This document shows positions 18,908 to 61,399 of a DNA stretch of 64,000 nucleotides, one piece after another. The stretch's first letter is position 1. Each line of letters starts with the position of its first letter. The stretch comes from an uncultured Acidobacteriaceae bacterium. GTDB taxonomy: Bacteria; Acidobacteriota; Terriglobia; Terriglobales; Acidobacteriaceae. A program made the position numbers and the translations under genes. The stretch lies in the NCBI GenBank assembly GCA_963837915.1, contig CAWIPZ010000046.1, forward strand, positions 469 to 64,468, written 5' to 3'. The notes beneath the pieces were generated by a model. The model had not been told where the DNA came from. It searched no databases and was given only the letters and a program-made list of their open reading frames with translations.

Positions 18908-18923
18908 GGTGATATCGGTCACG
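18908..18923. promoter_or_regulatory. CRP-type box GGTGA-TATCGG-TCACG
   Basis: GTGA-N6-TCAC palindrome in the tonB/adh divergent intergenic region. Confidence 0.4.
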
Positions 18924-18965
18924 TGTGCTGAAATTTGCAGACTGCGCGGAAAAACTCTGCCCGAT

Positions 18966-18981
18966 CGTGATCCCCATCACA
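18966..18981. promoter_or_regulatory. CRP-type box CGTGA-TCCCCA-TCACA
   Basis: GTGA-N6-TCAC palindrome about 120 nt upstream of the adh start at 19102. Confidence 0.45.
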
Positions 18982-19101
18982 TGTCGCAGTGAGCGAGAGC
19001 ATCGCGTCGTCCTTGCAAGGAGAGCAAACTGTTCAGAGGAGTTTCCGTACCGGCTTGGGAAGACAGCTTCAGATCAGCCGGTGTGGAATCGGGAGGCAGA
19101 A

Positions 19102-20199
19102 ATGGCAACCATGGCATCACAATTATTGGAGCGCGAATCGAGATCCACGGGTATGATGCGGGCGCTCGTATTTCACGGACCGAACCAAATTGCGATCGAA
19201 AGTGTGCCCGTTCCAAGAGCAGGTGTCGGAGAAGCCGTAATTCGGGTGACGCTAACAACGATTTGCGGAACCGACATTCACATTGTGAAGGGCGAATACA
19301 AAATACGGCCGGGCCTTGTCATTGGACACGAGCCGGTCGGCGTGATCCACGAACTGGGCGAAGGTGTTTTTGGCTACAAAGTCGGCGACCGCGTGTTGGT
19401 TGGAGCCATTACGCCATGTGGCCAGTGCGGCAGCTGCCTGAGCGGTCAGTGGTCACAGTGCGGCGGCCCGATTGGCGGCTGGAAATTCGGCAACACCATT
19501 CACGGCGCACAGGCCGAATATCTACTCGTGCCAAACGCGCAAGCGAACCTGGCAAAGATTCCGAATGCGCTGAAAGATGAACAGGTAGTCCTTTTGGCTG
19601 ACATTGCCTCGACGGGTATTTCCGCAGCTGAAAGCGCCGAGTTGAAGATCGGCGATACTGCTGCAGTCTTTGCTCAGGGACCGATCGGGCTCTGTGCGAC
19701 GGCGGGAGCGCGGCTTAAAGGAGCGAGCTTCATTATCGGAGTCGAGTCCGACCCCGCAAGAGCAGCGATGGCGAAGCGAATGGGTGCCGACGTTGTGCTC
19801 AATTTCAAAGAGTGCGATGCGGTGTCGGAAATTCTTCGTCTCACCGGCGGCCGGGGCGTCGATGTGGCGATTGAGGCCTTGGGCACGCAGGGCACGTTTG
19901 AAAGTGCGCTCCGGGTTCTTCGACCCGGAGGCACCCTCAGCAGCCTTGGCGTGTATTCGGGAAAGTTGTCCCTACCTCTTGAGCCGTTTGCCGCAGGTCT
20001 TGGCGATCACAAAATCATCACGACACTTTGCCCGGGGGGAAAAGAGCGTATGCGACGCCTGATGGAGATGGTGCTTCACCGGCGGCTGGATCTGACGCCG
20101 CTGCTGACGCACCGTTTTAGACTCGATCAGATAATCGATGCCTACCGGCTCTTTGCCGAGCATCGCGACGGCGTTTTGAAGGTTGCCATCGAACCGTAG
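19102..20199 (+). CDS. Zn-dependent medium-chain alcohol dehydrogenase (secondary-ADH/TbADH-like)
   Basis: MRALVFHGPNQIAIESVPVP...ICGTDIHIVKGEY...GHEPVGVIHELGEGV. The ATG at 19102 is preceded by GGGAGG. Confidence 0.85.
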   Translation: MATMASQLLERESRSTGMMRALVFHGPNQIAIESVPVPRAGVGEAVIRVTLTTICGTDIHIVKGEYKIRPGLVIGHEPVGVIHELGEGVFGYKVGDRVLVGAITPCGQCGSCLSGQWSQCGGPIGGWKFGNTIHGAQAEYLLVPNAQANLAKIPNALKDEQVVLLADIASTGISAAESAELKIGDTAAVFAQGPIGLCATAGARLKGASFIIGVESDPARAAMAKRMGADVVLNFKECDAVSEILRLTGGRGVDVAIEALGTQGTFESALRVLRPGGTLSSLGVYSGKLSLPLEPFAAGLGDHKIITTLCPGGKERMRRLMEMVLHRRLDLTPLLTHRFRLDQIIDAYRLFAEHRDGVLKVAIEP

Positions 20200-20223
20200 G
20201 TAGATTTGGAGCTCATAAAATGT

Positions 20224-20300: not shown

Positions 20301-21257
20301 TTAGTCGCGGACTGTCAAGACGGGACATTTGGCATGGCATATAACTTCATGTGTGATAGCCCACGGTATGTGCGCAGCCATTCGTGGGGAGGGCGTTCGG
20401 TTCGCTCCCATAACGATCAAGTCGATTCTGTGTGTAGCTGCTGCATTCAAGATCCCTTCCGGCAGGAAATCCGTTACGGCCAGATATTCTGGGTCCGCCA
20501 CCAGACTCGTGTTGTTTGGAACCAGTTCCTTCAGTTTTCTCACACTGTCGCCTCGCGTGGTTCGTTGCCACTCTGTAAATAGTTCAGCAGCGTAACCAGA
20601 CGGGCCATAGGCGGCGGGGCCAAGATCAGCTACTGGCATTGGCGGCACCATGTGCAGTAGTACGAGCTTTGCCTGGTAGTCCTCCGCCAGCGATAGAGCA
20701 TACGGAAAAGCCTTGGCGGAAGCTGCTCCGAAATCGGTTGCAAATAGGATCCGCCTCAACTTGGTCGTGCCCGAGTCGACGGCAGGGACATGCGGACCAA
20801 TCGTAAGCACCAGGCAGGGAGCCAGGCGCAGGACTTCTTCCGCCACCGATCCCAGTGCGAGTTTCTTGAGGCCGCTTCGTCCGCGAGTCCCAAGCACCAT
20901 CAGATCGACATTCTCACGTTCAATCACCGATGCAAAAACATCCCATATTGGACCTTGTTCGAGCAGCAGATGGTGGTTGAGATCCTTCATTTGCACCATC
21001 TCGTCGAGGTGTTTCATTTGCTCTTCCGCTTCAAGTCGGCGACGATTTAGCTCTCGCGGCAACGGTTCTAGCGGGATTTGGTCGCGCGCTGCCGGCGGAA
21101 GTGCGTGTAGGACGGAAAGCCTGGAACCGTATCGCCGCGCAATCGCAACGGCGTACATGAGCGCTTGCCGTGACGCATCCGAGAAGTCTGTCGCAATTAA
21201 AACCTGCTTGAATCCGACACTCTGCTTTGGACCGTGTATCTGTGCAAGCGCTGACAT
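20301..21257 (-). CDS. Tandem universal stress protein (2 x UspA domain)
   Basis: FKQVLIATDFSDASRQALMYAVAIARRYGSRLSVLHAL, a second repeat RILFATDFGAASAKAF..., and C-terminal HAKCPVLTVR. Confidence 0.85.
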   Translation of the reverse strand: MSALAQIHGPKQSVGFKQVLIATDFSDASRQALMYAVAIARRYGSRLSVLHALPPAARDQIPLEPLPRELNRRRLEAEEQMKHLDEMVQMKDLNHHLLLEQGPIWDVFASVIERENVDLMVLGTRGRSGLKKLALGSVAEEVLRLAPCLVLTIGPHVPAVDSGTTKLRRILFATDFGAASAKAFPYALSLAEDYQAKLVLLHMVPPMPVADLGPAAYGPSGYAAELFTEWQRTTRGDSVRKLKELVPNNTSLVADPEYLAVTDFLPEGILNAAATHRIDLIVMGANRTPSPRMAAHIPWAITHEVICHAKCPVLTVRD

Positions 21258-21297
21258 AAGCTTCCTCCTTTCCGTCTTCGACTCCTGCCCAAACGTA

Positions 21298-21597
21298 CTA
21301 GCCGATCCGCTCCAAACTGCTACCAGTTCGGCGTGCCGTCCTTATCGCGGAAGCGGAAAGTTGACTTCTTCCACTGTTCCTTCGAACGTGACTTGGCCGT
21401 TGGACATGCTTCGAAACCGCAACCGCCGGTTCGGGCTTCTGCCCTGCCGCCGGGGCGATTGTTAAGATCAGCGCAACAGCCGTCAAAATTAGAATGTCGC
21501 TTAAGAAGAAACGACCCCCACAAGCTATCAAGAACTCAACTAGAGTTCTCTTGGGTACCCTATTTCTCTGGGGAGTGATGATGCGCGAGGTTTTCAT
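21298..21597 (-). CDS. Small hypothetical membrane-anchored protein
   Basis: Strong RBS (AGGAGGAGG) 6 nt upstream of the ATG at 21597 and one hydrophobic segment (ILILTAVALILTIAPAA). No recognisable family. Confidence 0.3.
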   Translation of the reverse strand: MKTSRIITPQRNRVPKRTLVEFLIACGGRFFLSDILILTAVALILTIAPAAGQKPEPAVAVSKHVQRPSHVRRNSGRSQLSASAIRTARRTGSSLERIG

Positions 21598-21670: not shown

Positions 21671-21686
21671 TGTGACGCAAATCACC
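21671..21686. promoter_or_regulatory. CRP-type box TGTGA-CGCAAA-TCACC
   Basis: GTGA-N6-TCAC palindrome in the divergent region between the usp operon and the cytochrome c gene. Confidence 0.45.
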
Positions 21687-21841: not shown

Positions 21842-21857
21842 GGTGATTTGGATCACT
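21842..21857. promoter_or_regulatory. CRP-type box GGTGA-TTTGGA-TCACT
   Basis: GTGA-N6-TCAC palindrome about 155 nt upstream of the cytochrome c start at 22012. Confidence 0.4.
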
Positions 21858-22011
21858 GAAGCTGTCCCTTTCAACGTGAGACTCTCAACTAAAGCTCTTT
21901 TGCCTAACTCCCGAGGGCTTGTATGAGCGGCTATTTTTTCAGTGCCGGCTCGACGGCGATAAGCACCGATGCGTTCGTCGGGTTAACAGAAAGAGGAGAG
22001 GAATCCAAGTC

Positions 22012-22329
22012 ATGAAGACGACAAAACTGGTGATGTTGGTAATGGTAATCGCGGTAGGGCTGTTCATCCTGGTCCCTAATCTGTCGTGGGCTGCCGATGA
22101 CGGAGCCGCCATCTACAAAGCAAAATGTGCGGTCTGTCACGGAGTGGATGCCATGGGTAAGCCCGCAGCCAAGATTCCGAGCCTGGTTTCGGACGAGGCA
22201 AAGAAGGCGTCGGATGACGACATGGCCAAGTCCGTAACGGAGAAACCGAAACACCCGGGAACCGTGAAGAGCCTAGCTCCTGACCAGGTAAAGATGGTTG
22301 TGTCGTACATTCGCACGCTACAGAAGTAG
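22012..22329 (+). CDS. Small monohaem class I c-type cytochrome (secreted)
   Basis: Signal peptide MKTTKLVMLVMVIAVGLFILVPNLSWA and a single CAVCH motif. AGGAGAG RBS. Confidence 0.8.
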   Translation: MKTTKLVMLVMVIAVGLFILVPNLSWAADDGAAIYKAKCAVCHGVDAMGKPAAKIPSLVSDEAKKASDDDMAKSVTEKPKHPGTVKSLAPDQVKMVVSYIRTLQK

Positions 22330-22785: not shown

Positions 22786-23397
22786 TCACTCCGGCGAATA
22801 CTGCACCTGCGGTTCGGCGTCCGCCGCGCTGGCCGGGATGGTTAATGCAACCGACCCGTATTGCAATCCTTTTTCAAAGGCCTCCAGATTCAGTTTAAGG
22901 AAGCTTCGAGGAACAGAATCAGCGACCGCCTTGCGCACTGCGTCGGCATCAAGCAGGCGCGTTACTGCAGTGAAGAATCCCACCATCACCGAATTCAGCA
23001 CCATGCGCTTTCCCAGTTCTTCGGCGATCCGGGTTGCCGGGATGCTATAGACCTGGATTTCCTTATTGAGACCCGTAGGGGTGGGATCGGAAAGGCGCAC
23101 CATATCCTGCTCGACGATCAAGATGCCGCCATCTTTCAGCTCGGGAACAAAGCGAACATAGGCCTCTTGCGACATTACGATGAGAATGTCCGGGTGGGTG
23201 ACGTAGGGGTATAACACCGGAGAATCGGAAAGGACGAGCTGTGCACTGCAGGCGCCGCCACGGGCTTCCGGGCCGAAGTTCTGCGTCATGGTGGCGAAGG
23301 CTCCTTGATAAATCGAAGCTGCCTTGCCCAGGAGGATGGCCGAGAGGATTACTCCTTGGCCGCCGAAACCCGCGATACGAATTTCTGTTAACTGCAT
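22786..23397 (-). CDS. 2-oxoacid:ferredoxin oxidoreductase, gamma subunit
   Basis: IRIAGFGGQGVILSAILLGKAA start. Last gene of a delta-alpha-beta-gamma operon. Confidence 0.85.
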   Translation of the reverse strand: MQLTEIRIAGFGGQGVILSAILLGKAASIYQGAFATMTQNFGPEARGGACSAQLVLSDSPVLYPYVTHPDILIVMSQEAYVRFVPELKDGGILIVEQDMVRLSDPTPTGLNKEIQVYSIPATRIAEELGKRMVLNSVMVGFFTAVTRLLDADAVRKAVADSVPRSFLKLNLEAFEKGLQYGSVALTIPASAADAEPQVQYSPE

Positions 23398-24266
23398 AAC
23401 ATCTCCGGTTGATCTTGTTCTATGTATTGGTCGCCCAGCGATTCGGTGTATTGCGCACGCATCATGGTTGCGTAGTCAGGGCGATCGCGGTCAACGAACT
23501 TGCCCACGATGATTTCCCCTGTCATGGTGAGACCCACCTCACAGGTCGGCGCTCCGTGCCGGACTTTGCTCTTCTCTTTGTAGTACTTCATGGTGTCGAG
23601 ACTATCGCCCAGTTTGTTGCGGCGTTGATAAAGCGTTGGACAGGGTGAGATCACTTCAATAAAGGAGAAGCCTTTCTTCTTGAACGCCTCGCTGATAGAA
23701 CGTGACAGTTGGCGCACGTGGAATGTGGTCCAGCGCGCGACATACACTGCGCCGGCAGCTTCCAGGAGATGGGGCAAATTGAACGATGGCTCGAACACGC
23801 CGTAGGGATTGGTGGAAGTGGTCGAGTGCTCCGGAGTGGTGGGCGCAGTCTGGCCGCCGGTCATGGCATAGATCAGATTGTTGACGCAGATGACCTTCAG
23901 ATCAATGTTGCGGCGCGCAGCGTGGATGAGGTGATTGCCCCCGATCGCCGAAAGATCGCCGTCCCCGGAATAGACGACGACGTTTAGCTTTGGGTTTGCC
24001 AGCTTGAGGCCGGTAGCGAACGGGATGGCGCGGCCGTGAGTGGTGTGGAAAGAATCAAGTTTCACATAGCCTGCCACGCGCCCGGTACAGCCGATGCCCG
24101 AGACCAAGGCCAGCGATCGTAAGTCGATTCTTGAGTCGATGAGCGCGCGCGCGAAAGAGTTCACGGTGGTGCCGATGCCACATCCCGGGCACCAGATGTG
24201 AGGCATGCGATCGGTGCGTAGAAAAGGCTCGACTGGATTGGTGATGCCGATCAAACTGTCTGACAT
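23388..24266 (-). CDS. 2-oxoacid:ferredoxin oxidoreductase, beta (TPP-binding) subunit
   Basis: HIWCPGCGIG...SGIGCTGR...GDGDLSAIGGNHLIHAARRN. Confidence 0.88.
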   Translation of the reverse strand: MSDSLIGITNPVEPFLRTDRMPHIWCPGCGIGTTVNSFARALIDSRIDLRSLALVSGIGCTGRVAGYVKLDSFHTTHGRAIPFATGLKLANPKLNVVVYSGDGDLSAIGGNHLIHAARRNIDLKVICVNNLIYAMTGGQTAPTTPEHSTTSTNPYGVFEPSFNLPHLLEAAGAVYVARWTTFHVRQLSRSISEAFKKKGFSFIEVISPCPTLYQRRNKLGDSLDTMKYYKEKSKVRHGAPTCEVGLTMTGEIIVGKFVDRDRPDYATMMRAQYTESLGDQYIEQDQPEMLCS

Positions 24267-25420
24267 CTGCTCGCCTCCACGATTACCCTGAGGATGTCTT
24301 CTGGTTTGTGAACTCCGCCACCGGCGTGCGACACGGCGAATGTCTTTGCCTGACCGGCGGCAGCTCGCTCCACTTCCCGCACCATCTGTCCCAGGTTAAG
24401 TTCGGGGACGACGAATGCTTTCACCTTCGCCGCGAGTTCGCGGATCTTATTCTCGGGGAAGGGCCAAGCTGTGATAAGGCGCAGCTTGCCGACGCGCAGA
24501 CCTTTCTTACGGGCGGACTCGATGGCCCGTTGTGCTACACGGGAGGTGATGCCGTATGAGACGACCACGACATCGGCGCTCTCGAGTTGTTCTTCCTCGA
24601 ACAAGGCAATGCAGTCGGCGGAGTTGCGAATCTTATCTTGCAAGCGCCGAACCAGCTTGTCCTGGACCAGCGGAGTCATATTGGGATAGCCGTGTTCGTC
24701 GTGGGTCAACCCCGTGACGTGAAAGTGGTAACCTTCGCCCGCGTGCGCCATTTCCGGCACTAAGTCCCCATTGGTAGCGTAGGGTAAGTAGTCTACAACT
24801 GTCTTGCGGGTGTGGCGTCGGGGCGTGATCTCGATCTGGTCGGCGGGCGGAATTACTACTTTCTCGGTCATGTGGCCGACGACCTCATCCATCATGAACA
24901 TGACGGGCACGCGGAATTTTTCGGCGAGGTTAAAGGCTTTGATGGTGAGGTCAAAACACTCCTGCGGCGAATTAGGGCAGAGGGCAATGATCTGGTAGTC
25001 GCCATGCGAGCCCCAACGCGCCTGCATCATGTCGCCTTGCGCGGGCAGTGTGGGCAGCCCGGTGGACGGGCCTCCGCGCTGCACATCCACGAACACACAA
25101 GGCGTTTCGGTCATGGCCGCGTAGCCGATGTGTTCCATCATCAAAGAGAAGCCGGGACCGGAGGTAACAGTGAACGCCTTGGCGCCGCCCCAGACCGCCC
25201 CCTGCAACGTGATCGACGCCGCAAGTTCGTCTTCCATCTGGATAAACGTTCCACCTACTTTAGGTACCCGAGAGGCAAAGCGTTCCACTACTTCGGTGGA
25301 GGGAGTAATGGGATATCCAGCAGCGAAGCGGGCACCAGCTGCTAGCGCACCCTCGCAGCAGGCGTGGTCACCATCGATGAAATGCGTGCCAGAGAGCACT
25401 CCACGAGGGTCAGCCTTCAT
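24251..25420 (-). CDS. 2-oxoacid:ferredoxin oxidoreductase, alpha subunit
   Basis: GDHACCEGALAAGARFAAGYPITPSTEV...TSGPGFSLMMEHIGYAAMTETPCVFVDVQRGGPSTGLPT. Confidence 0.88.
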   Translation of the reverse strand: MKADPRGVLSGTHFIDGDHACCEGALAAGARFAAGYPITPSTEVVERFASRVPKVGGTFIQMEDELAASITLQGAVWGGAKAFTVTSGPGFSLMMEHIGYAAMTETPCVFVDVQRGGPSTGLPTLPAQGDMMQARWGSHGDYQIIALCPNSPQECFDLTIKAFNLAEKFRVPVMFMMDEVVGHMTEKVVIPPADQIEITPRRHTRKTVVDYLPYATNGDLVPEMAHAGEGYHFHVTGLTHDEHGYPNMTPLVQDKLVRRLQDKIRNSADCIALFEEEQLESADVVVVSYGITSRVAQRAIESARKKGLRVGKLRLITAWPFPENKIRELAAKVKAFVVPELNLGQMVREVERAAAGQAKTFAVSHAGGGVHKPEDILRVIVEASRCQTV

Positions 25421-25653
25421 TTGTCACCTTTTCCGCCGGAAGTCACTTTGGTGGCGTAAATGGCGAAGTCATGGCAGTACATGCCGCATAAGTCGCAACC
25501 ACTGCACTTTTCCGGATGCACGACATGCGGTGGATGGTAGCCCTTGGAATTAAAAGCGGACGAGAGCGCGAGCACGTGCGAAGGACAAAACTCCACACAC
25601 AGGCCGCAAGCCTTGCAGTGCTCGACAACGATGGAAACGCGACCTTTCGCCAT
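25417..25653 (-). CDS. 2-oxoacid:ferredoxin oxidoreductase, delta subunit (2 x [4Fe-4S] ferredoxin)
   Basis: CKACGLCVEFCP and CSGCDLCGMYCH cluster motifs. ATGA overlap with the alpha subunit gene. Confidence 0.85.
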   Translation of the reverse strand: MAKGRVSIVVEHCKACGLCVEFCPSHVLALSSAFNSKGYHPPHVVHPEKCSGCDLCGMYCHDFAIYATKVTSGGKGDK

Positions 25654-25728
25654 GAGATCTCCCCGCTGAATGGCGGTAGAACACCCACGAAATCAGAGGT
25701 CATTATGCTTTGGAACGAGGCTGTTGGA

Positions 25729-25744
25729 TGTGACATCCATCACC
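25729..25744. promoter_or_regulatory. CRP-type box TGTGA-CATCCA-TCACC
   Basis: GTGA-N6-TCAC palindrome between the divergent oxidoreductase operon and the cytochrome c gene at 25938. Confidence 0.45.
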
Positions 25745-25937
25745 GGTGTTCGTGAAGTACAGCACACTCCTCCGGAGCGGTCGGGAAAGCGAGAAGGCGG
25801 CAACAAACGTTGAGCTGGGTCTCGGGGAAATTCCTCCAGGCGTTACGTCACTGTGGCACAAGACACAATGGATGGTGCCATTCATCACCGCAATCAGGAA
25901 AGCTGTGGACTAAGAATCAGTAGAAGGAGAAAATCCG

Positions 25938-26390
25938 ATGTCTCTAAGGAAATTGATTCTAGCGTTTTCTGTCCTGATCGTCTTCACCTGCGGGGCCGCC
26001 GCGCAGGAGCAAACGCAGGACCAAACAAAGACTACGATCCAGCATGTCACCATCAAGCCCACATCGGCTGCATCCGGCAAGGAAATGTACACATCGTACT
26101 GCGCCGTTTGTCATGGAACGGACGGCAAAGGCGGGGGTCCTGCGGCTAGCGCGCTGAAGACTCCGCCCGCCGACCTTACGATGCTGAGCAAGAACAACGG
26201 AGGCAAGTATCCCGCTCTGAAAGTCACTTCCACCATCCGCGGCGGCGCGTCTAATCTTCCCGCGCACGGATCCAAGGAGATGCCAGTTTGGGGACCGTTG
26301 TTTTGGGGAATGAGCAATGGACACGATGTAGAGGTGCAACTACGGGTAACGAACCTTACGCACTATATCGAAACTCTGCAAGCGAAGTAG
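25938..26390 (+). CDS. Monohaem c-type cytochrome (secreted)
   Basis: Signal peptide MSLRKLILAFSVLIVFTCGAAA, one CAVCHGTDGKG motif, and a distal MPVWG. Confidence 0.8.
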   Translation: MSLRKLILAFSVLIVFTCGAAAQEQTQDQTKTTIQHVTIKPTSAASGKEMYTSYCAVCHGTDGKGGGPAASALKTPPADLTMLSKNNGGKYPALKVTSTIRGGASNLPAHGSKEMPVWGPLFWGMSNGHDVEVQLRVTNLTHYIETLQAK

Positions 26391-26537: not shown

Positions 26538-27578
26538 CTAGCCCCCACTAAGGATTCTCCAGGCCTCGCGGGCGGTGACTTTTACATGCTGCACGCTCTT
26601 GACCGCCTTCATGTATTGCGCCCGCTCGAAAGCTGAAGGATCGGGACAGCGAATCTGACTCATGCTGCCCTTCATTTGCTGAACCGATTCGTATTCGTGT
26701 TCTTCCATCCATGCCCGGACGCCATCCTCAATCTTCTCAAGGTGACCGATGCCGTTGCGTAGCAGCGTCGAGCAGAGCATAGTGACGTCGGCGCCGACCA
26801 TCAGCAGCTTTACGACGTCTTCGGGGCCATGCACGCCGCTCGTCGCAGCCAGGCTGGCTCGAATGCGATGATAAAGGATACCGATCCAGGTCAGGGGGAG
26901 CCTTAGCGCTTGTGGCGAGCTGAGCAACACGTTTGGTTGGATTTCCAGCTCATCGAGGTTGATGTCTGGCTGATAGAAGCGATTGAACAGCACCAGCCCA
27001 TTTGCTCCAGCATCGTCGAATCGCTTTGCCATATTGGCCATATTGCTGAAAAAAGGACTGACCTTTACCGCGACGGGAATGTGCACCGAAATCTTTACTT
27101 CTCGAAGAATGTCAATATAGGTCTTCTCGACGTCGTAACCTGCGGTATCTGGGTTTGTCGGAATGAAGTAGATATTGCACTCGATGGCGTCGGCTCCGGC
27201 TTGCTCGATCTCCTTCGCATACTTGGCCCATCCGCCAAGGGTCGGACCGTTGAGGCTGGCGATAATCGGAATTGTCACCGCGTTCTTGGCTTTGCGGATG
27301 TGATTCAGATATCCCTCAGGTCCCAGGCGGAACTCATCGGGCTGAGGGAAGAAACTTGCGGCCTCCGCAAAGCTGTTCGTTCCTTCCCGCAGATGATGTT
27401 CAAGTTCGAAGCTTTCCTGCCGCAGTTGCTCCTCGAACAGCGAGTACAAGACCACGGCGGATGCACCCGCATCTTCGAGGCGGCGAATGCCATCGATCTC
27501 TTGCGATAACGGCGATGCTGAAGCTACCAAAGGCGTACTAAGCTGCAAGCCCAGGTAAGTCGTGCTGAGGTCAGTCAT
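26538..27578 (-). CDS. Dihydroorotate dehydrogenase-like (class 1 DHOD fold) protein, PFOR-associated
   Basis: TTYLGLQLSTPLVASASPLS start and a TIM-barrel DHOD-like sequence. Lies 25 nt downstream of nifJ on the same strand. Confidence 0.75.
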   Translation of the reverse strand: MTDLSTTYLGLQLSTPLVASASPLSQEIDGIRRLEDAGASAVVLYSLFEEQLRQESFELEHHLREGTNSFAEAASFFPQPDEFRLGPEGYLNHIRKAKNAVTIPIIASLNGPTLGGWAKYAKEIEQAGADAIECNIYFIPTNPDTAGYDVEKTYIDILREVKISVHIPVAVKVSPFFSNMANMAKRFDDAGANGLVLFNRFYQPDINLDELEIQPNVLLSSPQALRLPLTWIGILYHRIRASLAATSGVHGPEDVVKLLMVGADVTMLCSTLLRNGIGHLEKIEDGVRAWMEEHEYESVQQMKGSMSQIRCPDPSAFERAQYMKAVKSVQHVKVTAREAWRILSGG

Positions 27579-27603
27579 AATTTCACCTTCGTCTCCCTGT
27601 GTC

Positions 27604-48997: not shown

Positions 48998-49010
48998 TTG
49001 GTTGTTTTGC

Positions 49011-50269: not shown

Positions 50270-50281
50270 GGGGTTGACGCT

Positions 50282-53238: not shown

Positions 53239-55274
53239 AGAGCCTCGCGATTGTCGGCGCGTTGCTTTTCGCCATGGCACCTGTTCTTCTGGGGCAGACG
53301 CCGCAGGAGGACGTGCTAGGCATTCACAATCTGGGACCGGGCAGCCAGTCGCCGGTGACCGGGGCACTGCCCGCCTGCCAGTTCTGCCATGCTCCGCACT
53401 CCGGCCTCAACAGCACCAGCCTTCCTAACCTGCCGTTGTGGAGCCAGACGCTCTCTACTGAATCGAATTACACGCTCTACACTAGCCCGACCTTGGTGAA
53501 TACAGAACAGGAGCCTACGCTGGGCTCGGCCAGCAACCTCTGCCTTAGCTGTCATGATGGCACCGTCGCCCCCGGAACGAACGTACCTTATATCGGCCTC
53601 AAGATGAGCGGCTCGATGAACAGCCAGGATTTATTCATCGGCACGCTGCAGGGTATCCACCCGTTTAATTTCAAGCTCCCGCTGAATTGTTCGAACGACA
53701 ACCTGCTGTCGAGTCTTTGCAGCGGCGGCACGGGGAACCCGGCTGTGCCCTTGGTGAACGGCAACGTGCAGTGCAACAGCTGTCATAATCCGCACGCGCA
53801 GTTTATCGATCCAGTGCAAGGGGATTTTCTGGTGATGAACAACGCGAACTCGGCACTGTGCCTGTCCTGCCACGTGAGCCAGCCCTCCGACATTAGCGCG
53901 ATCCGCGTGCGAACGGCGAATACAGCTACAGCGCCTGCCGATGCTGGCACAGGTACAGGGATCAGCCGCTCTACGGGCAGCCAATACAATCCCTTCACTG
54001 CCTGGCGCGAGAGCATTCATGCGACGGCCGCCCACAAACTATCCAAGAACGCCAAGGTGGGACCGTACAGCACGGTGAATCAGAACGCCTGCCTCTCGTG
54101 CCACACCTCCCACAATGCTCCGGGCGGGGCGCAGTTGCTAGGTGGACCGATTCCAGCAATTCCAAACATGGACGCGGCTACGCAGAACTGCATTACGTGC
54201 CACAACGGCGGCACTAACCTTTCCCCGGTAATCCCCAATGTTTACGCCGAGTTTGCTAAGGTAGGCCATCCTTTTCCAGCAGGAAGCAACCGGCACAGCC
54301 AGCAGGAAAGCCTGGTGCTCAATAACGACCGGCACGCCACCTGCGTCGATTGCCACAACCCGCACGCCTCGCGACAGACTGGTTCCTTTGCGTCGACTGC
54401 AATTCGTCCCTCACAGAATGGCACAATTGGGGTCAGCGCGACGGATGGCACCGCTGAGGTGAATCCTGCGGCCGATCAATATGAGACTTGTCTGCGTTGT
54501 CACGGAACGAGCACGGGCAAGCGGGTTCTGGCCGTTTACGGCTATGCGCCGGTACGTGCGACGACCGGCGGCGACCCGTTAAACCTTCTGCCGCAGTTCG
54601 GGATTGCGGCGAGGTCGAGTCACCCGGTGATGCATGAGAGTAAGAGTGGGCTACCACAGCCCAGCCTACTCAAGTACATGTGGAATCTGGATGGCCGCAC
54701 CCAGGGGCGGCCGATCAGCGCGCGCATTCTTTGCACGGACTGCCACAATAGCGACGATAATCGGGAATTTGGCGGCACCGGACCCAACGGACCACACGGT
54801 TCGCAGTTCTCGCACATTCTGGAACGGCGTTACGAGTTCAGCCAGGTAGCGCCGGGCCTTCCGCCAGCTGCTGGTCCGGGAAGCACTATTCTGAATCTTC
54901 TTCCCCCGATTCTCGATCCCGGTGCCGGTGGACCTTACTCCTTGTGCGCCAAGTGTCACGACCTGAATGATATTGTTTCCAACGCCAGCTTCACCAAGCA
55001 CGCACTCCACATCAACGCGGGATTCTCTTGCTCGGTGTGTCACACGGCTCATGGTATGGCCGCAAATGCATCGAATCTCTCAGGCGAACGCATTGTCAAC
55101 TTCGATTTAAAGGTTGTGGCTGAGAACGGCACTTCGAGTTATTTACGCTCTCCTATTTTCTACAATCGCGGCACTAATACCTGTACCCTCACCTGCCACA
55201 ACATGAGCCACAACGCTGACGGTACGGTGACGCCGGGTGGTAGCGCCAAAGCGCCCGTGGCAGGTAAACGTTGA
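53235..55274 (+). CDS. Secreted multihaem c-type cytochrome with 11 CxxCH motifs plus one C-terminal CxxxCH
   Basis: Signal peptide MKSLAIVGALLFAMAPVLLG. Motifs: CQFCH, CLSCH x3, CNSCH, CITCH, CVDCH, CLRCH, CTDCH, CAKCH, CSVCH, and CTLTCH at 55182-55199. ATGA-type 4-nt overlap with the NHL gene. Confidence 0.88.
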   Translation: MKSLAIVGALLFAMAPVLLGQTPQEDVLGIHNLGPGSQSPVTGALPACQFCHAPHSGLNSTSLPNLPLWSQTLSTESNYTLYTSPTLVNTEQEPTLGSASNLCLSCHDGTVAPGTNVPYIGLKMSGSMNSQDLFIGTLQGIHPFNFKLPLNCSNDNLLSSLCSGGTGNPAVPLVNGNVQCNSCHNPHAQFIDPVQGDFLVMNNANSALCLSCHVSQPSDISAIRVRTANTATAPADAGTGTGISRSTGSQYNPFTAWRESIHATAAHKLSKNAKVGPYSTVNQNACLSCHTSHNAPGGAQLLGGPIPAIPNMDAATQNCITCHNGGTNLSPVIPNVYAEFAKVGHPFPAGSNRHSQQESLVLNNDRHATCVDCHNPHASRQTGSFASTAIRPSQNGTIGVSATDGTAEVNPAADQYETCLRCHGTSTGKRVLAVYGYAPVRATTGGDPLNLLPQFGIAARSSHPVMHESKSGLPQPSLLKYMWNLDGRTQGRPISARILCTDCHNSDDNREFGGTGPNGPHGSQFSHILERRYEFSQVAPGLPPAAGPGSTILNLLPPILDPGAGGPYSLCAKCHDLNDIVSNASFTKHALHINAGFSCSVCHTAHGMAANASNLSGERIVNFDLKVVAENGTSSYLRSPIFYNRGTNTCTLTCHNMSHNADGTVTPGGSAKAPVAGKR

Positions 55275-56795: not shown

Positions 56796-57824
56796 TTACA
56801 TTGCTAGCGGTCGCCCTCGGCTCTGCGGCGCCGGACAACAGTTCTCTGCGCATGTATCGGGTCGCGGCCCAAGCGATCCCACCGCTCGCCGCTCCCACCC
56901 CGGATTCATCCGCTCCAGAATCAGTTCGCGAATCATGTCAATGAATTTCGGATGCAAACCCGCGGTTCCCGCCCGCGTCATGGGCAGGCCCAGCGAATGG
57001 CATACCTGTCGAGCTTCCACGTCCAGGTCGTACAACACTTCCATGTGATCGGAAATAAAGCTGATCGGCGCCAGCACTACCGCCGACGCCAGATCCCTTG
57101 CCTTCACCTCACGCAGGTAATCGAGAATATCTGGCCCCAACCATGGCTGTCCCGGAGCGCCGCTGCGGCTTTGATATACCAATGCATCGTTCTTCTTCGC
57201 AAGCGCCAGTGAAGCAAGCATTCGCACTTCCTCCAGTTGCTTCACATAATCACTCGTGTTGGCCATGGCAAGCGGAATACTATGAGCCGTATAAATTACC
57301 TGCACATTTCTCTGCGCGTCCGCTGGAATGGCCCGCAGGGCATCTCGTACCCGTTCCACAGTGGCCTCGACGAATGCCGGATGGTTGAAGAATGCACGCA
57401 ACTTGTCCACTTCAGGAGCGCCCGGCCCAACTTCGCGTTGTGCCCGCGCAATGTCCTCGCGATACTGCCGGCATCCTGAGTATGAGCTGTAAGCCGAAGT
57501 CACGAAGCCCAACGCCCGCCGAATGCCATCCTGTTTCATTCTTCGCAAAGTCTCAGGCAGCAGGGGATGCCAGTTGCGGTTTCCCCAATAGATTGGCAGG
57601 TTGGGGCCATTTCGCTTCAACTCAGCTTCCAGGGCGGAGATCAGTTCTCGCGTTTGCTGGTTAATCGGGCTCTTGCCCTCGAAATGGTAGTAGTGCTCGG
57701 CTACTGCGAGCATGCGTTCGCGCGGAATATTCCGTCCGCGCAGCACATTCTCAAGAAACGGAATCACCTCTTCACGAGATTCCGGTCCGCCGAAAGAAAC
57801 AATCAGAACGGCATCGTAATTCAT
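56796..57824 (-). CDS. hemH: Ferrochelatase
   Basis: MNYDAVLIVSFGGPE...IYTAHSIPL...SFISDHMEVLYDLD are typical HemH blocks. Confidence 0.9.
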   Translation of the reverse strand: MNYDAVLIVSFGGPESREEVIPFLENVLRGRNIPRERMLAVAEHYYHFEGKSPINQQTRELISALEAELKRNGPNLPIYWGNRNWHPLLPETLRRMKQDGIRRALGFVTSAYSSYSGCRQYREDIARAQREVGPGAPEVDKLRAFFNHPAFVEATVERVRDALRAIPADAQRNVQVIYTAHSIPLAMANTSDYVKQLEEVRMLASLALAKKNDALVYQSRSGAPGQPWLGPDILDYLREVKARDLASAVVLAPISFISDHMEVLYDLDVEARQVCHSLGLPMTRAGTAGLHPKFIDMIRELILERMNPGWERRAVGSLGPRPDTCAENCCPAPQSRGRPLAM

Positions 57825-57953
57825 ATCCTGATTATCGATCCCTCATCAATATACGACCTGGCGGAGAACGCTGAAGCGGCTAAGCAGTAGCCCGGCGCAG
57901 GAAATGGAACCCCGGAGCATCTGCCCCGGGGTTTCGAGTCGGCTTGCGTTGCC

Positions 57954-58280
57954 TCAGGCAGCTAACGCATCGACGAAGTGCTCACAAACTGAGGTCTCGA
58001 GTTTGTAGTAGTTCACCTTGACTGGTGTGGTCAGGAATGGCTTCAGGATGTCCAGAGCCTTGGGATAGAACTCTCTCTCATAGCGATCGGCATCCGATCT
58101 GGTCGCCCACAGGCTGATGGTGATTACCTTCTCCTCTCTCGTCTTCTCAGGGAAAAAGGGCAGAATCTCCAGGAAGCCGGTCTGCTTCTTGAGGATGGGC
58201 ACGATTTCGTTCTTTACGACCTTCACGAACTCTTCTTTCTTTTCCAGTTTCACTTCAAAATCAAGAATACGTGCAAACAT
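57954..58280 (-). CDS. Small ABM (antibiotic-biosynthesis-monooxygenase-like, ferredoxin-fold) domain protein
   Basis: 108 aa, with MFARILDFEVKLEKKEEFVKVV...ISLWATRSDADRYE resembling ABM/Dabb-fold proteins. The assignment is by general resemblance only. Confidence 0.45.
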   Translation of the reverse strand: MFARILDFEVKLEKKEEFVKVVKNEIVPILKKQTGFLEILPFFPEKTREEKVITISLWATRSDADRYEREFYPKALDILKPFLTTPVKVNYYKLETSVCEHFVDALAA

Positions 58281-58553
58281 GATGGTTCTCCTTTTCGATT
58301 TGAAATAAGGGTTGCTGGCGGAGGCCCTCGGTTTAAGGAGGGTTCAGTGTTTTCCGAATGCCGGGAGGCTCGGGCCGAATCAAAAGTTAGCACAATTGGT
58401 TTTGCCGATGCAGTGACGGATGACTGTCAGCGCGGTGCACTATGTCACAGAGTTCGATGAGCGGACCGCCAGGAGGGCCCCAGGAACATCTTCCCTTGTA
58501 ACGGTGGAGCGAAGAATGGTTCGCACGGATTTAGAGAGCCACTGAACCGGTGA

Positions 58554-59036
58554 CTACGACTTATCTTCGAAGTTGCCCGCCTGCAAGGATAGGTAGCGCT
58601 CATAGCCTACTTCTTTGATCTGGTGAAGTTGCGCCTCCAGCCAGTCCACATGGTCTTCTTCATCCTTAAGCAGCTTCACAAGGAGGTCGCGGCTGCCGTT
58701 GTCTTTCTCCTCTGTCGCGATCTGCACTGCAGTGTTGTACTGTTTGACCGCCCCGAGCTCAAGCTCCAGGTCGCTCTCAATCATGTGGCGAACGGTTCCG
58801 CCAACGTTCAGCTTTAGAGGTTCCATGGAAGGTGTTCCATCGAGGAAGAGCACCCTCTCGATCAGAACTTCGGCATGCTTCATCTCATCGATGGATTGTT
58901 TCTTGATGTAGTCGGCGAGTTTCTTGTAGCCCCAGTTCTCGCACATTTCGGCGTGCACAAAATACTGGTTGATCGCCGTGAGTTCTTCCCGCAGAGCGTC
59001 GTTCAGCTCTTTGATTACTTTCGGATTACCCTTCAT
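58554..59036 (-). CDS. bfr: Bacterioferritin
   Basis: MKGNPKVIKELNDALREELTAINQYFVHAEMCENWGY...IDEMKHAEVLIERVLFLDG is a canonical Bfr sequence, including the haem-ligand Met region. Confidence 0.92.
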   Translation of the reverse strand: MKGNPKVIKELNDALREELTAINQYFVHAEMCENWGYKKLADYIKKQSIDEMKHAEVLIERVLFLDGTPSMEPLKLNVGGTVRHMIESDLELELGAVKQYNTAVQIATEEKDNGSRDLLVKLLKDEEDHVDWLEAQLHQIKEVGYERYLSLQAGNFEDKS

Positions 59037-59179
59037 TTAGAATTCCCTTCTTTTTCGAACTAGAAAACGGCAGCAATTGTACACCCCATGCGCTTGTCCA
59101 TGACGTGGTGAAACAATCACAACTCGGAACCAAACTCGATGCGAATGCCTACTAACCGGGGAGACCGGCGCGCGCGGCC

Positions 59180-61324
59180 ATGGTCTCGACATTCTTGCAG
59201 AAGCAGGGTGGGGTTACGGTGACGGGCGGCACGATTGCCTGTGATCAGCATCACCTACCGGCGGTCCTTTACAGGCAAGCCGGTTCCGACATAGATTTAA
59301 GGACCGACAGTTCGACAACGGAGTGTATGTCCCCACGTCCCTCTGAGCACAAGCGAACCAAAACCTCAGCCCCGGCCATAACCATGGCTGAGGTCCTGCT
59401 TTCGACCGACCTCTTGGAGACCCTCCCGGATGCTGTCGTCGCCGTCGATCACGACGGAGTCATCGTCCAAGTAAATTCGCAGGCACAAGGGTTGTTTGGC
59501 TATGAGCGCGACGAATTGATCGGCCAGAAAGTCGAAATGCTTGTCCCAGAGAGTTATCGTGGCAAGCACCACCATCACCGTGAGAACTTCGCAAAGACAC
59601 CGAAGACGCGGCGCATGGGAGCAGAGCTGGATCTCTATGGAAGACGGCGGGATGGCGCGGAATTCCCGGTAGAAATCAGTCTCAGTCCCGTCTCCACCGA
59701 GAAAGGCGCGTTCGTGCTGAGCGCGATCCGCGACATCAGCGATCGCAAGAGAATCGCGGAAGAACTGCGCCGAGCGAACGAAGAACTGCACAGAAGAACT
59801 ACCGAACAGCTGGGAGAATATCGATCGCGACTGGCCCTGATCATAGATTCCTCCGAGGACGCCATCCTTAGCAAGGACTTGAATGGCACGATTACCAGTT
59901 GGAACAAGGGAGCCGAGCGCATCTATGGTTACACGCCAGAAGAGGCCGTTGGAAAACACATATCGCTTTTAATTCCCGCTGACCGTCCCGATGAAGTCCC
60001 TCAGATTCTCCGGAAAATCGCCCGAGGGGAAGGAATTGACCATCACGAATCTGTGCGGGTAACCAGGGATGGCCGCCGCCTGGACGTGTCCGTTTCCGTC
60101 TCTCCCTTGCGCAATGCAGCCGGCGACGTCTTGGGAGCGTCAGTAATCGCGCGCGACGTCACGACCCAAAAACGGACTGAGAACCAACTCCGACAATCCC
60201 AGAAGATGGAAGCAATCGGCCGATTGGCTGGAGGAGTGGCGCACGATTTCAATAATGTCCTTGGCATTATCAACGCATGTGCTGAATTTCTGCGCGACCG
60301 CATCGATCCCGCCGCCGAACCGTCGATCTATGTCGAGAACATCAGGAAAGCAATCGGGCGCGGCACCTCACTGACGAAACAATTGCTCGCCTTCAGCCGG
60401 ACGTCTGCCGTTCAACCCCGCGTCCTCGATCTCAACGAACGACTGAGGGACATCAGCAAGCTGCTGCGTCCGCTGCTAGGAGAAGATGTTGAGATTCTCG
60501 TTGTGCCCAGAACGACCTCGGCGGTGGTCGAGGCCGACCCTGGCCAGCTTGACCAGATCGTGGTCAACCTAGCAGTGAATGCCCGCGATGCCATGCCGCG
60601 TGGTGGCAAGTTCATCCTCGAAACCGGCGCGATCACATTGGACGAGGGGTTCGCCGAGCAAGATCAAGCCATGGTGCCGGGAAAGTACGTCATGCTCGCG
60701 GTTAGCGATACGGGCACAGGCATGAATGAGGGCACCGTGTCGCGGATTTTCGAGCCTTTCTTTACCACCAAAAAGGCGGGCAAAGGAACTGGCTTGGGCC
60801 TAGCCACGGTATATGGCATCGTCAAGCAGAGCGCAGGACACATAATGGTCTACAGTGAACCCGGTCAGGGAACAACGTTTAAGATATACCTCCCGAGCGC
60901 GGAACATAAGATGGGAGTCGGTTCCAAGGTTGAAACGGAGACCATCAGCCCGAAACGGCAAGGCACTACGATTTTGCTCGTAGAGGACGACGAGATCATG
61001 CGCGGCTTGACTCGAAAACTTCTCGAAGAACACGGGTATAGCGTAATCGAGGCGGATGACGGCAAGTCCGCGCTCGAATGGGTCAATTCGCATCCGGATC
61101 CGATTGATCTGTTGTTGACAGATGTAGTGATGCGCCGGATGAGTGGTCCTGAACTAGCCGAGCACCTGAGCACCTCTCACCCGACGCTGAAAGTCGTATA
61201 CATGTCAGGCTACACTGGCGAGCTGATGGCCAATCGTGAAGTGTTAAAGCCCGGTGTAACTCTCCTTGAAAAGCCCTTTAGCCGAACTGCGCTGCTGAAC
61301 ACGATCCATTCAACGTTGGGGTGA
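59180..61324 (+). CDS. PAS/PAC hybrid sensor histidine kinase with a C-terminal receiver
   Basis: Two PAS domains, H-box GGVAHDFNNVL, HATPase_c (GTGLGLATVYGIV), and a receiver (TILLVEDDEI...DLLLTDVVMRRMSG). The start is uncertain, with alternative ATGs at 59327 and 59384. Confidence 0.85.
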   Translation: MVSTFLQKQGGVTVTGGTIACDQHHLPAVLYRQAGSDIDLRTDSSTTECMSPRPSEHKRTKTSAPAITMAEVLLSTDLLETLPDAVVAVDHDGVIVQVNSQAQGLFGYERDELIGQKVEMLVPESYRGKHHHHRENFAKTPKTRRMGAELDLYGRRRDGAEFPVEISLSPVSTEKGAFVLSAIRDISDRKRIAEELRRANEELHRRTTEQLGEYRSRLALIIDSSEDAILSKDLNGTITSWNKGAERIYGYTPEEAVGKHISLLIPADRPDEVPQILRKIARGEGIDHHESVRVTRDGRRLDVSVSVSPLRNAAGDVLGASVIARDVTTQKRTENQLRQSQKMEAIGRLAGGVAHDFNNVLGIINACAEFLRDRIDPAAEPSIYVENIRKAIGRGTSLTKQLLAFSRTSAVQPRVLDLNERLRDISKLLRPLLGEDVEILVVPRTTSAVVEADPGQLDQIVVNLAVNARDAMPRGGKFILETGAITLDEGFAEQDQAMVPGKYVMLAVSDTGTGMNEGTVSRIFEPFFTTKKAGKGTGLGLATVYGIVKQSAGHIMVYSEPGQGTTFKIYLPSAEHKMGVGSKVETETISPKRQGTTILLVEDDEIMRGLTRKLLEEHGYSVIEADDGKSALEWVNSHPDPIDLLLTDVVMRRMSGPELAEHLSTSHPTLKVVYMSGYTGELMANREVLKPGVTLLEKPFSRTALLNTIHSTLG

Positions 61325-61383
61325 AGGACTCGGTTCCTAGAGTCACAGCTAGCCAGGCGCCGGTGCCCAACAACCAATCGACT

Positions 61384-61399
61384 GGTGATGGGGATCACA
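61384..61399. promoter_or_regulatory. CRP-type box GGTGA-TGGGGA-TCACA
   Basis: GTGA-N6-TCAC palindrome about 180 nt upstream of the second crp/fnr gene. Confidence 0.45.

Follow-up and report, generated by a model that had tools for sequence, protein, structure and literature searches.

Conserved Crp/Fnr-type boxes in a 22-bp tandem register precede redox, haem and cytochrome operons of Terriglobales

The locus and its palindromic boxes

A preliminary description of a 64-kb stretch of DNA from an uncultured Acidobacteriaceae bacterium (contig CAWIPZ010000046.1), here called the window, had pointed to a CRP-type palindrome, GTGA-N6-TCAC, in front of most redox and fermentation operons and had read it as the sign of a local Crp/Fnr regulon. 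Here we analyse this palindrome (the box), the operons that it precedes and the two Crp/Fnr-family regulator genes, crp1 and crp2, that lie among them. The gene map was built from NCBIfam, Pfam and PADLOC scans, with start codons corrected by homology. Box positions give the first base of GTGA, and imperfect boxes are graded by the number of the eight core bases that they keep.

The first boxes separate the tonB-usp operon (17.0–18.8 kb, minus strand) from a gene for a zinc alcohol dehydrogenase (Zn-ADH; 19103–20199, plus strand). A tandem pair with 22-bp spacing at 18887–18922, made up of GTGCTTCAAGTCAC (7/8) at 18887 and an exact box at 18909, faces the tonB-usp operon, whose -10-like hexamer CACAAT lies at 18859–18864 (minus strand). 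The second pair, at 18967–19002, again with 22-bp spacing (18967 exact, 18989 6/8), faces the Zn-ADH gene (start 19103; -10-like hexamer CAAACT at 19025–19030). Single exact boxes are found at 21672–21685, upstream of the hyp99-usp2 operon (20301–21597, minus strand; ATG at 21597), with CACAAT beginning 22 nt past the box, and at 21843–21856, upstream of a cytochrome c gene (21919–22329, plus strand), with GAGACT beginning 21 nt past the box.

The korDABC operon (22786–25653, minus strand; ATG at 25653), which encodes a 2-oxoacid:ferredoxin oxidoreductase, is preceded by tandem boxes at 25730–25765. The proximal one, at 25730, is exact and lies 22 nt from the -10-like hexamer CATAAT (25702–25707, minus strand); the distal one, at 25752, keeps 7/8. 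Before a second cytochrome c gene (25938–26390, plus strand; -10-like hexamer AAGAAT at 25912–25917) stands a degenerate tandem at 25853–25888 (25853 6/8, 25875 7/8; 22 bp). The divergent region between nifJ, which encodes a pyruvate:ferredoxin oxidoreductase (PFOR) and shares its unit with a DHOD-like gene (26538–31178, minus strand), and crp1 (31401–32123, plus strand) carries an array of four boxes at 31265–31347. These lie at 31265 (6/8), 31287 (exact), 31312 (exact) and 31334 (6/8), spaced by 22, 25 and 22 bp, and are flanked by the -10-like hexamers of nifJ (CATGCT, 31237–31242, minus strand) and crp1 (GACACT, 31370–31375).

Downstream of crp1, two exact boxes 22 bp apart (32237 and 32259; 32237–32272) precede the ahbD-like radical-SAM/hemA/TPR operon (32351–35796, plus strand), with the -10-like hexamer TATCGT at 32295–32300. 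The one-mismatch box GTGCGCCAAGTCAC at 35817–35830 stands before adhP (35922–37003, plus strand; start 35922), and an exact box at 37129–37142 before the gene for an ExaC-type aldehyde dehydrogenase (ALDH; 37227–38773, plus strand; ATG at 37227; -10-like hexamer TATCTT at 37165–37170). The latter box has a weak upstream partner at 37107, of which the TCAC half alone is kept. An exact TGTGA-N6-TCACA box at 44504–44517 lies 116 nt upstream of resB, in a unit with ccsB and genes for a histidine kinase and an NtrC-type sigma54 response regulator (38842–40305; whole unit 38842–44388, minus strand). On the other side of this box, at a distance of 250 nt, is the 16-haem cytochrome gene that opens a multihaem cluster (44765–55274, plus strand; 16 CxxCH motifs in the first protein). 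Further along, tandem boxes at 59219–59254 (59219 7/8, 59241 exact) are located between a ferritin gene (58554–59036, minus strand; -10-like hexamer AAGAAT at 59191–59196) and a hybrid PAS histidine kinase gene (59327–61324, plus strand). Finally, an exact box at 61385 and a conserved second element, GTGTGGGAAAACAC, at 61405 (together 61385–61418) lie about 190 nt upstream of crp2 (61582–62283, plus strand).

Enrichment and intergenic bias

An exact search for GTGANNNNNNTCAC (GTGA-N6-TCAC) returned 14 matches in the window. In 100 dinucleotide-preserving shuffles the count was 1.02 ± 1.00; the highest was 3, and 14 was never reached. The enrichment of the palindrome is thus confirmed. Of the 13 sites described previously, by coordinates that refer to the flanking base one position to the left of GTGA, 12 are exact (18909, 18967, 21672, 21843, 25730, 31287, 31312, 32237, 32259, 37129, 44504 and 61385). 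The remaining one, given as 35816, is GTGCGCCAAGTCAC at 35817 and has one mismatch, as claimed. The full TGTGA-N6-TCACA also occurs at precisely the two sites named, 31287 and 44504. That list holds but was incomplete, two further exact matches at 34000 and 59241 having been overlooked.

Thirteen of the 14 exact boxes are intergenic. Intergenic DNA accounts for 5,928 bases, or 9.3% of the window, in the homology-corrected map, so that box density is 2.19 per kb between genes and 0.017 per kb in coding sequence (binomial P = 5e-13). Equal frequency in coding DNA, which the preliminary description had said would speak against a regulon, is therefore not what we find: the motif is about 130-fold denser intergenically. 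Box 59241 counts as intergenic because the start of the kinase gene was corrected to the ATG at 59327. An alternative start at 59180, which would make the site coding, was rejected, as orthologue alignments begin at residues 49–50 and a ribosome-binding site precedes the ATG at 59327. The coding match (34000–34013) falls within hemA. We judge it a chance occurrence outside the system, since only 2 of 76 hemA orthologues carry an internal site and it is the sole site with A at position 5 of a half-site; for its lack of conservation we reject it as a functional site inside hemA.

Between 18.8 and 44.8 kb, each intergenic region that must hold a promoter contains a box, and the box-free gaps are convergent gene ends or lie within operons. 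At least eight further degenerate boxes, keeping six or seven core bases, accompany an exact or near-exact box at a distance of precisely 22 bp (20 bp in one case).

Conservation in related genomes and metagenomes

Homologues of Crp1 with 80–93% identity were found in 80 species-level genomes, all from the Acidobacteriota order Terriglobales, several of which are labelled Candidatus (Ca.) Sulfotelmatobacter. The source organism of the window is a Terriglobales acidobacterium near Ca. Sulfotelmatobacter. The 80 related loci contain 414 exact boxes in 1.5 Mb. Only 11 of these fall within the 815 kb of homology-confirmed coding DNA, a density of 0.014 per kb that equals random expectation. Counting genomes and metagenome contigs together, at least 150 relatives retain the box.

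Orthologues were scored for an exact box within 400 nt upstream of the gene in the 80 loci, unless stated otherwise. The box precedes crp1 in 79/80, the ahbD-like gene in 75/76, nifJ in 40/42, korD in 34/34 and korA in 50/52 cases. For the ALDH gene the count is 11/14, or 12/14 with one mismatch allowed, and exact boxes are present in two of three resB contexts. The imperfect adhP box (TGTGcGC..gTCACA) is itself kept in 20 of 22 orthologue contexts, and the cytochrome c gene at 25938 has a box with at most one mismatch in 44 of 59. Genes internal to operons lack an upstream box, as seen for dhod (0/41), tpr (0/25), the sigma54 response regulator (0/39) and ccsB (0/8), with hemA at 2/70. Conservation upstream of orthologues, which had been suggested as a check, is thus found at the first genes of operons across the 80 genomes. 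In site-anchored alignments the half-sites are invariant and the spacers and flanks have drifted, which indicates true footprints. The ahbD-like box pair is retained in 77 of 80 loci with invariant 22-bp spacing. The closest relative (L025) keeps the boxes corresponding to 21672 and 21843 as a pair 172 bp apart, and L009 has a box 160 nt ahead of its orthologue of the cytochrome c gene at 21919–22329.

In a separate metagenome scan with Crp2, an exact box stands ahead of crp2, at a distance of about 190 nt, in 70 of 70 independent loci. Boxes lie near the start of the hybrid PAS kinase gene in 8 of 13 metagenome loci, with 22-bp tandem pairs in the examples displayed. The box also extends to more distant relatives: intergenic boxes still surround homologues of Crp1 that are just 44–53% identical and stand in unrelated contexts. 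In L162, seven boxes occur within 10.7 kb, between divergent usp genes and before a usp gene, a second crp paralogue and a multihaem cytochrome gene. In L165 and L166 they precede usp, HSP20 and GroEL genes, and in L163 and L168 a box lies immediately upstream of the crp gene. The word local in the earlier description reflects the window size alone; the regulon reading as such is supported.

The sole relative without a box upstream of crp1 is L076 (CAWIMI010000039.1; 10001–10720, 10995–11636 and 20137–20718). Synteny is wholly lost there, and crp1 is flanked by two crp2-like paralogues, which suggests that the regulator set has been reshuffled in some lineages.

Tandem register and promoter geometry

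The half-site reads tGTGA(T/C), with the preceding T present in approximately 50% of sites. At its fifth base, T or C accounts for 85% and A for 2% of the half-sites of 526 unique boxes in relatives, and none of the 26 intergenic half-sites in the window has A at this position. A partner box with at least six core bases lies at exactly ±22 bp from 8 of the 14 exact window sites, where 0.12 would be expected (P about 7e-14). The window pairs are 18887/18909, 18967/18989, 25730/25752, 25853/25875, 31265/31287, 31312/31334, 32237/32259 and 59219/59241. In relatives, 32–48% of boxes have a partner at this offset, as opposed to about 1% at any other.

A second fixed distance links the boxes to the promoter. 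The frequency of nAnnnT hexamers in relatives peaks sharply at 22 and 44 nt past the box, at 18–20% against a background of about 5%, and the stricter TAnnnT reaches 7% against 0.5%. The -10-like hexamer begins 22 nt past the promoter-proximal box, which is 44 nt past the distal one. In the window it starts at 22 nt past the proximal box in 9 of 13 contexts and at 21 or 23 nt in three more. With this hexamer taken as positions -12 to -7, the box centres would fall at -41.5 and -63.5. The site-anchored alignments show no additional conserved -35 element at the box promoters. We infer that the geometry is that expected for class II activation supplemented by another dimer upstream, similar to class III, and that the boxes would act as 22-bp tandem arrays with class II spacing, a feature that the preliminary description had not seen. 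Literature searches for a tandem architecture at -41.5 and -63.5 returned nothing relevant.

Two Crp/Fnr regulators with a CRP-type recognition helix

Crp1 (240 amino acids) combines a cysteine triad, C13-x2-C16-x8-C25, with two further cysteines, C64 and C112, and the recognition helix SRETVTR. Its paralogue Crp2 (233 amino acids; 47% identical) has the helix SRETVSR and is without C13, C16, C64 and C112. Both proteins belong to the Crp/Fnr superfamily, which is defined by a cNMP-binding-type beta-roll domain and a C-terminal HTH_Crp_2 domain: phmmer matches in the PDB (CRP, FNR, NtcA and others) span residues 42–237, and close homologues match PF00027, PF13545 and PF00325. In NCBIfam, the FtrB, CRP and Fnr models each match Crp1 with a score under their cut-off, with 84.1 bits against 266 for the CRP model (NF008732) and 44.4 bits against 228 for the Fnr model (NF008365).

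HMMER and MAFFT align both helices on the CRP segment SRETVGR. Equivalents of R180, E181 and R185 are present in each, in agreement with the earlier statement that both regulators share the R-E-x-x-x-R residues of E. coli CRP, and they explain the GTGA-type half-site. The cyclic AMP (cAMP) ligands E72, R82 and S83 are not conserved, the aligned positions being a gap, Pro/Tyr and Tyr/Glu. Judged by these residues, neither Crp1 nor Crp2 is a cAMP-CRP. Homologues with at least 85% identity are annotated generically, often wrongly as cAMP-dependent.

In Crp1, C13, C16, C25 and C112 align with C20, C23, C29 and C122 of FNR, and the triad is followed by N-L-P, aligned with I-P-F in FNR. All 79 orthologues of Crp1 keep the triad and C64, and 76 of them have a cysteine at the position of C112; there is no cysteine past residue 148 in Crp1. 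Searched exhaustively with HMMER, 1.8 billion cluster representatives yielded 524 clusters at E ≤ 1e-30. The CxxC-x8-C triad occurs in 81 of the 118 full-length top representatives and RExxxR in 103, and 35 combine RExxxR with all four FNR-equivalent cysteines. Across 90 triad-bearing representatives, C64, in the beta-roll motif FVLCKGS, is far better conserved than C112 (98% vs 50%), and the fourth ligand may thus differ from that of FNR. The FNR structure paper reports no role for the residue aligned with Cys64, and literature searches for CxxC-x8-C motifs gave nothing relevant. In a family survey, all Fe-S proteins of the FNR group have an ExSR helix, and RExxxR goes with CRPs that bind cyclic nucleoside monophosphates (PMC3590769). 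Set against this survey, Crp1 with its FNR-style cysteines and RExxxR helix is a hybrid. The earlier proposal of a low-oxygen or energy-limitation regulon divides in two: low oxygen fits the FNR-like cysteines of Crp1, whereas energy limitation signalled through cAMP does not.

Sigma54-type promoters at crp2 and resB

Two of the boxes do not follow the pattern described above. A sigma54-type promoter, TGGTCCGGGACTTGCC, is found at 61539–61554 (plus strand), 28 nt before the ATG of crp2, and TGG-N9-TGC occurs 41–45 nt before the ATG in 65 of 67 crp2 loci. Another such promoter, TGGCGCGAAACGTGCT, at 44415–44430 (minus strand), lies ahead of the operon of resB, ccsB, the histidine kinase and the sigma54 response regulator. 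The element recurs in distant resB orthologue contexts, as TGGCGTGGAACTTGCA in L071 and L077 and as the variant TGGCGTTGGACTTGCG in L048. From boxes 61385 and 44504 down to the sigma54 promoters of crp2 and resB the distance is roughly 90–150 nt, and neither box is followed by a conserved -10 element. Each may be part of a sigma70 promoter of its own further upstream, or may modulate the sigma54 promoter; it is unusual for a sigma54 promoter to have a Crp/Fnr box where an enhancer would be expected.

The 16-haem operon had been listed among the targets of box 44504. We found no support for this box as a driver of that operon 250 nt away, and it more plausibly serves the divergent resB-ccsB operon.

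The crp2 upstream region has further conserved features. An element with the consensus ggtcataTaACCAacc occurs 5–20 nt upstream of the crp2 box (window 61325–61384; loci L081–L160), and the second element, TGTGgGAAAgcACgCA, begins 20 bp after the box start, departing from the 22-bp rule. A sigma54 look-alike at crp1/nifJ (TGGCAC-N5-TTGC) was rejected as a promoter, the GG being present in just 21 of 59 crp1 loci and nifJ having GT. A degenerate box at +22 is the better reading of this element.

A model for regulation by Crp1 and its alternatives

The computable checks of the regulon interpretation, namely intergenic bias, footprinting and recognition residues, all support it, and we regard it as highly probable that the boxes are genuine conserved Crp/Fnr operators. 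The binding protein, the signal and activation itself we infer as follows. The operator tGTGA(T/C)-N4-(A/G)TCACa would be read by a Crp/Fnr-family activator encoded in the same gene cluster, with Crp1 as the primary candidate. At low oxygen, Crp1 would hold an Fe-S cluster through C13, C16 and C25 together with C64 or C112, and the cluster-bearing protein would bind DNA as a dimer via its CRP-type R-E-x-x-x-R residues. At most targets two boxes would abut in the fixed 22-bp register near -41.5 and -63.5 of the inferred start site, the proximal dimer replacing the -35 element (class II) and the distal dimer giving a second contact (class III-like).

Predicted targets comprise the pyruvate:ferredoxin and 2-oxoacid:ferredoxin oxidoreductases, two alcohol dehydrogenases and the aldehyde dehydrogenase, as well as Usp proteins, TonB, small cytochromes c and ferritin. 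They would further include the AhbD-like radical-SAM/HemA operon for oxygen-independent haem supply, the ResB/CcsB cytochrome maturation operon, crp1 itself and the kinase-crp2 unit. Crp2 would be a second-tier regulator with the same DNA specificity, no cysteine set and a sigma54 promoter, in a circuit that would resemble the ANR-DNR or FnrN-FixK cascades. We put the probability of the full model, in which Crp1 senses oxygen or redox state and activates from -41.5 and -63.5, at about 0.7.

Several observations weigh against this model. The recognition helices of Crp1 and Crp2 are indistinguishable, so that the binder is not assignable to one or the other by its helix. Cys112 is conserved in only half of the wider subfamily and is Thr in 3 of 79 close orthologues, which leaves the ligand set of the cluster, and the cluster itself, putative. 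The -10-like hexamers from which the -41.5 placement derives are weak (nAnnnT), and for boxes 21843, 35817 and 44504 the best hexamer lies at 21 or 23 nt rather than at 22. Moreover, class II activation does not account for the boxes at crp2 and resB.

The shared helix is also the starting point of the alternative that the operators are real but are bound by Crp2 alone, or by a third Crp/Fnr paralogue encoded elsewhere, with Crp1 merely a target. Relatives with several paralogues fit this idea: crp1 of L076 has two crp2-like neighbours, and a second crp gene is present in L162 and L165; the crp2 box, kept in 70 of 70 loci, fits it as well. However, it is crp1 that is most tightly linked to the densest arrays (79/80), and distant homologues of the Crp1 type keep boxes around them in other surroundings. 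Both proteins may bind, and we consider this alternative, in which Crp1 is not the binder, unlikely. Slightly less likely again is that a Crp/Fnr protein blocks transcription from the boxes, for instance under oxic conditions. Some promoters, such as nifJ/crp1, are covered by three or four boxes across the whole core promoter, boxes upstream of sigma54 promoters cannot work by class II contact, and fnr of E. coli is negatively autoregulated. Repressor sites nevertheless usually overlap the -10 element or the start site, whereas the proximal box here takes the -35 position at a fixed 22 nt before the -10-like hexamer, with no conserved -35 consensus, which is the signature of a class II activator.

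Two other identities for the binding protein are very improbable. Rex, a repressor that senses NADH/NAD+ and typically governs fermentation, haem and respiratory genes, has the operator consensus TTGTGAA-W4-TTCACAA, which contains the GTGA-N6-TCAC core (PMC2883068), and Rex and HcpR1 sites are reported to be identical in Desulfovibrio (PMC5701242); the presence of adh, PFOR and hemA also resembles Rex regulons. Yet Rex needs an A after GTGA, precisely the base that is missing from the intergenic half-sites of the window and rare in relatives, the spacers are G+C-rich rather than W4, and a position at -41.5 without a -35 element is unfit for a repressor. The gene-map scans found no rex gene in the 64-kb window. 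We reject Rex operators on half-site position 5 and the lack of a rex gene in the window. A classical cAMP-CRP catabolite regulon, to which we give as little credence, would agree with the CRP-type box, the R180/E181/R185 helix and the database name of the homologues, 'cyclic AMP receptor protein'. It is at odds with the loss of E72, R82 and S83, with the low score on the CRP model, with targets that are anaerobic redox genes rather than genes of sugar catabolism, and with a conserved cysteine set that points to a redox or oxygen signal. As for the match count being a product of chance, composition or a dispersed repeat, nothing beyond the lone coding match at 34000 speaks for it. The shuffles and the intergenic bias contradict it, as does the conservation of just the half-sites, with flanks that differ among sites and boxes kept across 160 loci; its probability is negligible.

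A bolder extension of the favoured model, with Crp1 as activator, would have Crp1 define an uncharacterised, widespread subfamily of at least 80 clusters at 50% identity. Its members would combine the CxxC-x8-C triad, Cys64 in place of the C122 equivalent as the fourth ligand, a CRP-type reading head, an obligatory dimer of dimers on the 22-bp register and action at a distance on sigma54 promoters (crp2, resB). We offer this extension tentatively and consider it doubtful in its entirety. If it were true, Crp1 would be the master hypoxia switch of the abundant Terriglobales of peat and soil.

Comparison with known regulators

Crp1 shares its superfamily fold with the [4Fe-4S] oxygen sensor FNR of E. 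coli and Aliivibrio fischeri (PMC4672761). FNR, like Crp1, has an N-terminal cysteine triad and a hydrophobic-Pro motif after it, and Crp1 itself, though only half of its wider subfamily, also has a cysteine at the C122-equivalent position. FNR boxes lie at about -41.5, as inferred here. The content of the regulon, with oxygen-sensitive oxidoreductases, alcohol dehydrogenases, Usp proteins, anaerobic haem synthesis and cytochrome genes, is typical of FNR and ANR. However, FNR uses an E--SR helix on TTGAT-N4-ATCAA, whereas Crp1 has RETVTR and the boxes read GTGA-N6-TCAC. The cysteine spacing is CxxC-x5-C in FNR and CxxC-x8-C in Crp1, the subfamily of Crp1 keeps Cys64 far better than the C122 equivalent, and the boxes here form strict 22-bp tandem pairs.

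The Fnr protein of Bacillus and Paenibacillus is an oxygen-responsive Fe-S regulator of the Crp/Fnr family whose box is TGTGA-N6-TCACA and whose cluster is held by C-terminal C227, C230 and C235 together with Asp141 (bioRxiv 10.1101/2020.01.03.894683). Crp1 differs from it in having an N-terminal triad and no C-terminal cysteines in place of a Cys-x2-Cys-x4-Cys site. E. coli CRP is the best sequence match of Crp1 in the PDB (E = 4e-15) and has in common with it the R180/E181/R185 equivalents and the half-site TGTGA(T). It is, however, only 23% identical, its cAMP ligands are absent here, and the regulon is redox-related rather than catabolic.

HcpR1 of Desulfovibrio desulfuricans is a non-cAMP Crp/Fnr protein with an R-E-R helix that binds TGTGA-N6-TCACA and is autoregulated; two-site 'class 3' arrangements have been proposed for it, and sigma54 determinants occur at some of its targets (PMC5701242). 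It is thought to sense NO via haem and controls nap and nitrosative-stress genes (PMC5701242). Unlike in the present system, no cysteine triad has been described and no fixed 22-bp register reported for HcpR1. Rex has the GTGA-N6-TCAC core and overlapping classes of target genes in common with the boxes described here, but belongs to a different protein family, acts as a repressor and reads GTGAA/TTCAC with an A/T spacer.

In ANR-DNR of Pseudomonas and in FnrN/FixL-FixK of rhizobia, an Fe-S paralogue stands above a cysteine-less one, both use the same box, and a box precedes the gene of the second regulator. Unlike here, both proteins of these cascades use the FNR-type TTGAT box. A further difference lies in crp2, with its conserved sigma54 promoter and a hybrid PAS kinase gene as neighbour.

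A Crp/Fnr activator, a palindromic box at -41.5 and control of anaerobic metabolism are textbook principle. What is new is the union of a CRP-type reading head with an N-terminal cysteine sensor in the style of FNR, whose fourth ligand probably differs, together with the strict 22-bp tandem register and a cysteine-less paralogue under predicted sigma54 control. Many Crp/Fnr subgroups are still uncharacterised (PMC9603854), and the combination of FNR-style sensor, CRP-style DNA head and 22-bp tandem sites should be of moderate interest to researchers of this family.

Implications for Terriglobales

Terriglobales and Ca. Sulfotelmatobacter rank among the most abundant bacteria of peat and acidic soils. 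They have been described as facultative anaerobes from genome content alone, and the description of Ca. Sulfotelmatobacter makes no mention of a regulator, Crp and Fnr included (PMC6018796). Full-text literature searches found no oxygen-responsive or FNR/CRP regulon in Acidobacteria. The boxes provide a testable map of operons (PFOR, 2-oxoacid:ferredoxin oxidoreductase, ADH/ALDH, Usp, oxygen-independent haem synthesis and cytochrome c maturation) that would be expected to be switched on together in anoxic soils, with a candidate protein and a DNA element. Such a map could help to interpret metatranscriptomes and could let anaerobic capacity be predicted from metagenome-assembled genomes.

Other features of the window

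With 491.6 bits on the AhbD (haem b synthase) model, the ahbD-like radical-SAM gene (32351–33619) stays just under the cut-off of 500 bits; its product contains an insertion. Under anoxia this enzyme may take the place of ChdC as an oxygen-independent coproheme decarboxylase. No box accompanies the other haem genes of the window, hemC (12796–13746) and a gene for a HemY-like oxidase (11185–12708), which lie at 11.2–13.7 kb on mixed strands, and ferrochelatase (56796–57824), which is encoded on the minus strand with ABM and ferritin genes (56796–59036).

Downstream of usp and tonB, at 14.1–16.9 kb, lies a gene for a 918-residue fusion protein (14118–16874, minus strand) of an ADP-forming acyl-CoA synthetase (CoA-binding, Succ_CoA_lig and ATP-grasp_5 domains) and a C-terminal GNAT acetyltransferase, the architecture of Pat-like protein lysine acetyltransferases. 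It possibly forms part of the box-controlled transcription unit.

A type I Zorya defence system occupies 2.3–9.7 kb on the minus strand (2338–9712), with ZorA at 7733–9712, ZorB at 7063–7743 and ZorC at 5925–7151. ZorD is split over five consecutive open reading frames (5164–5709, 4331–5167, 3379–4407, 2694–3194 and 2338–2733), which points to frameshifts, pseudogenisation or sequence errors.

The multihaem genes (44765–55274 and 62347–63990) encode the 16-CxxCH protein, a 4-CxxCH protein, an MtrC/MtrF-like protein with 11–12 haems, NHL beta-propeller proteins and a PpiC-type isomerase. A further gene, at 62347–63990 on the minus strand, codes for a fusion of a 7-haem cytochrome with a cytochrome b561-type membrane domain. 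The set as a whole resembles extracellular electron-transfer gene sets, and there is no exact box inside it. The maximal open reading frame of an NHL/ScyF-like protein (45931–47580) overlaps the 16-haem cytochrome gene (44765–46315) by about 385 nt, and its real start is probably much further downstream.

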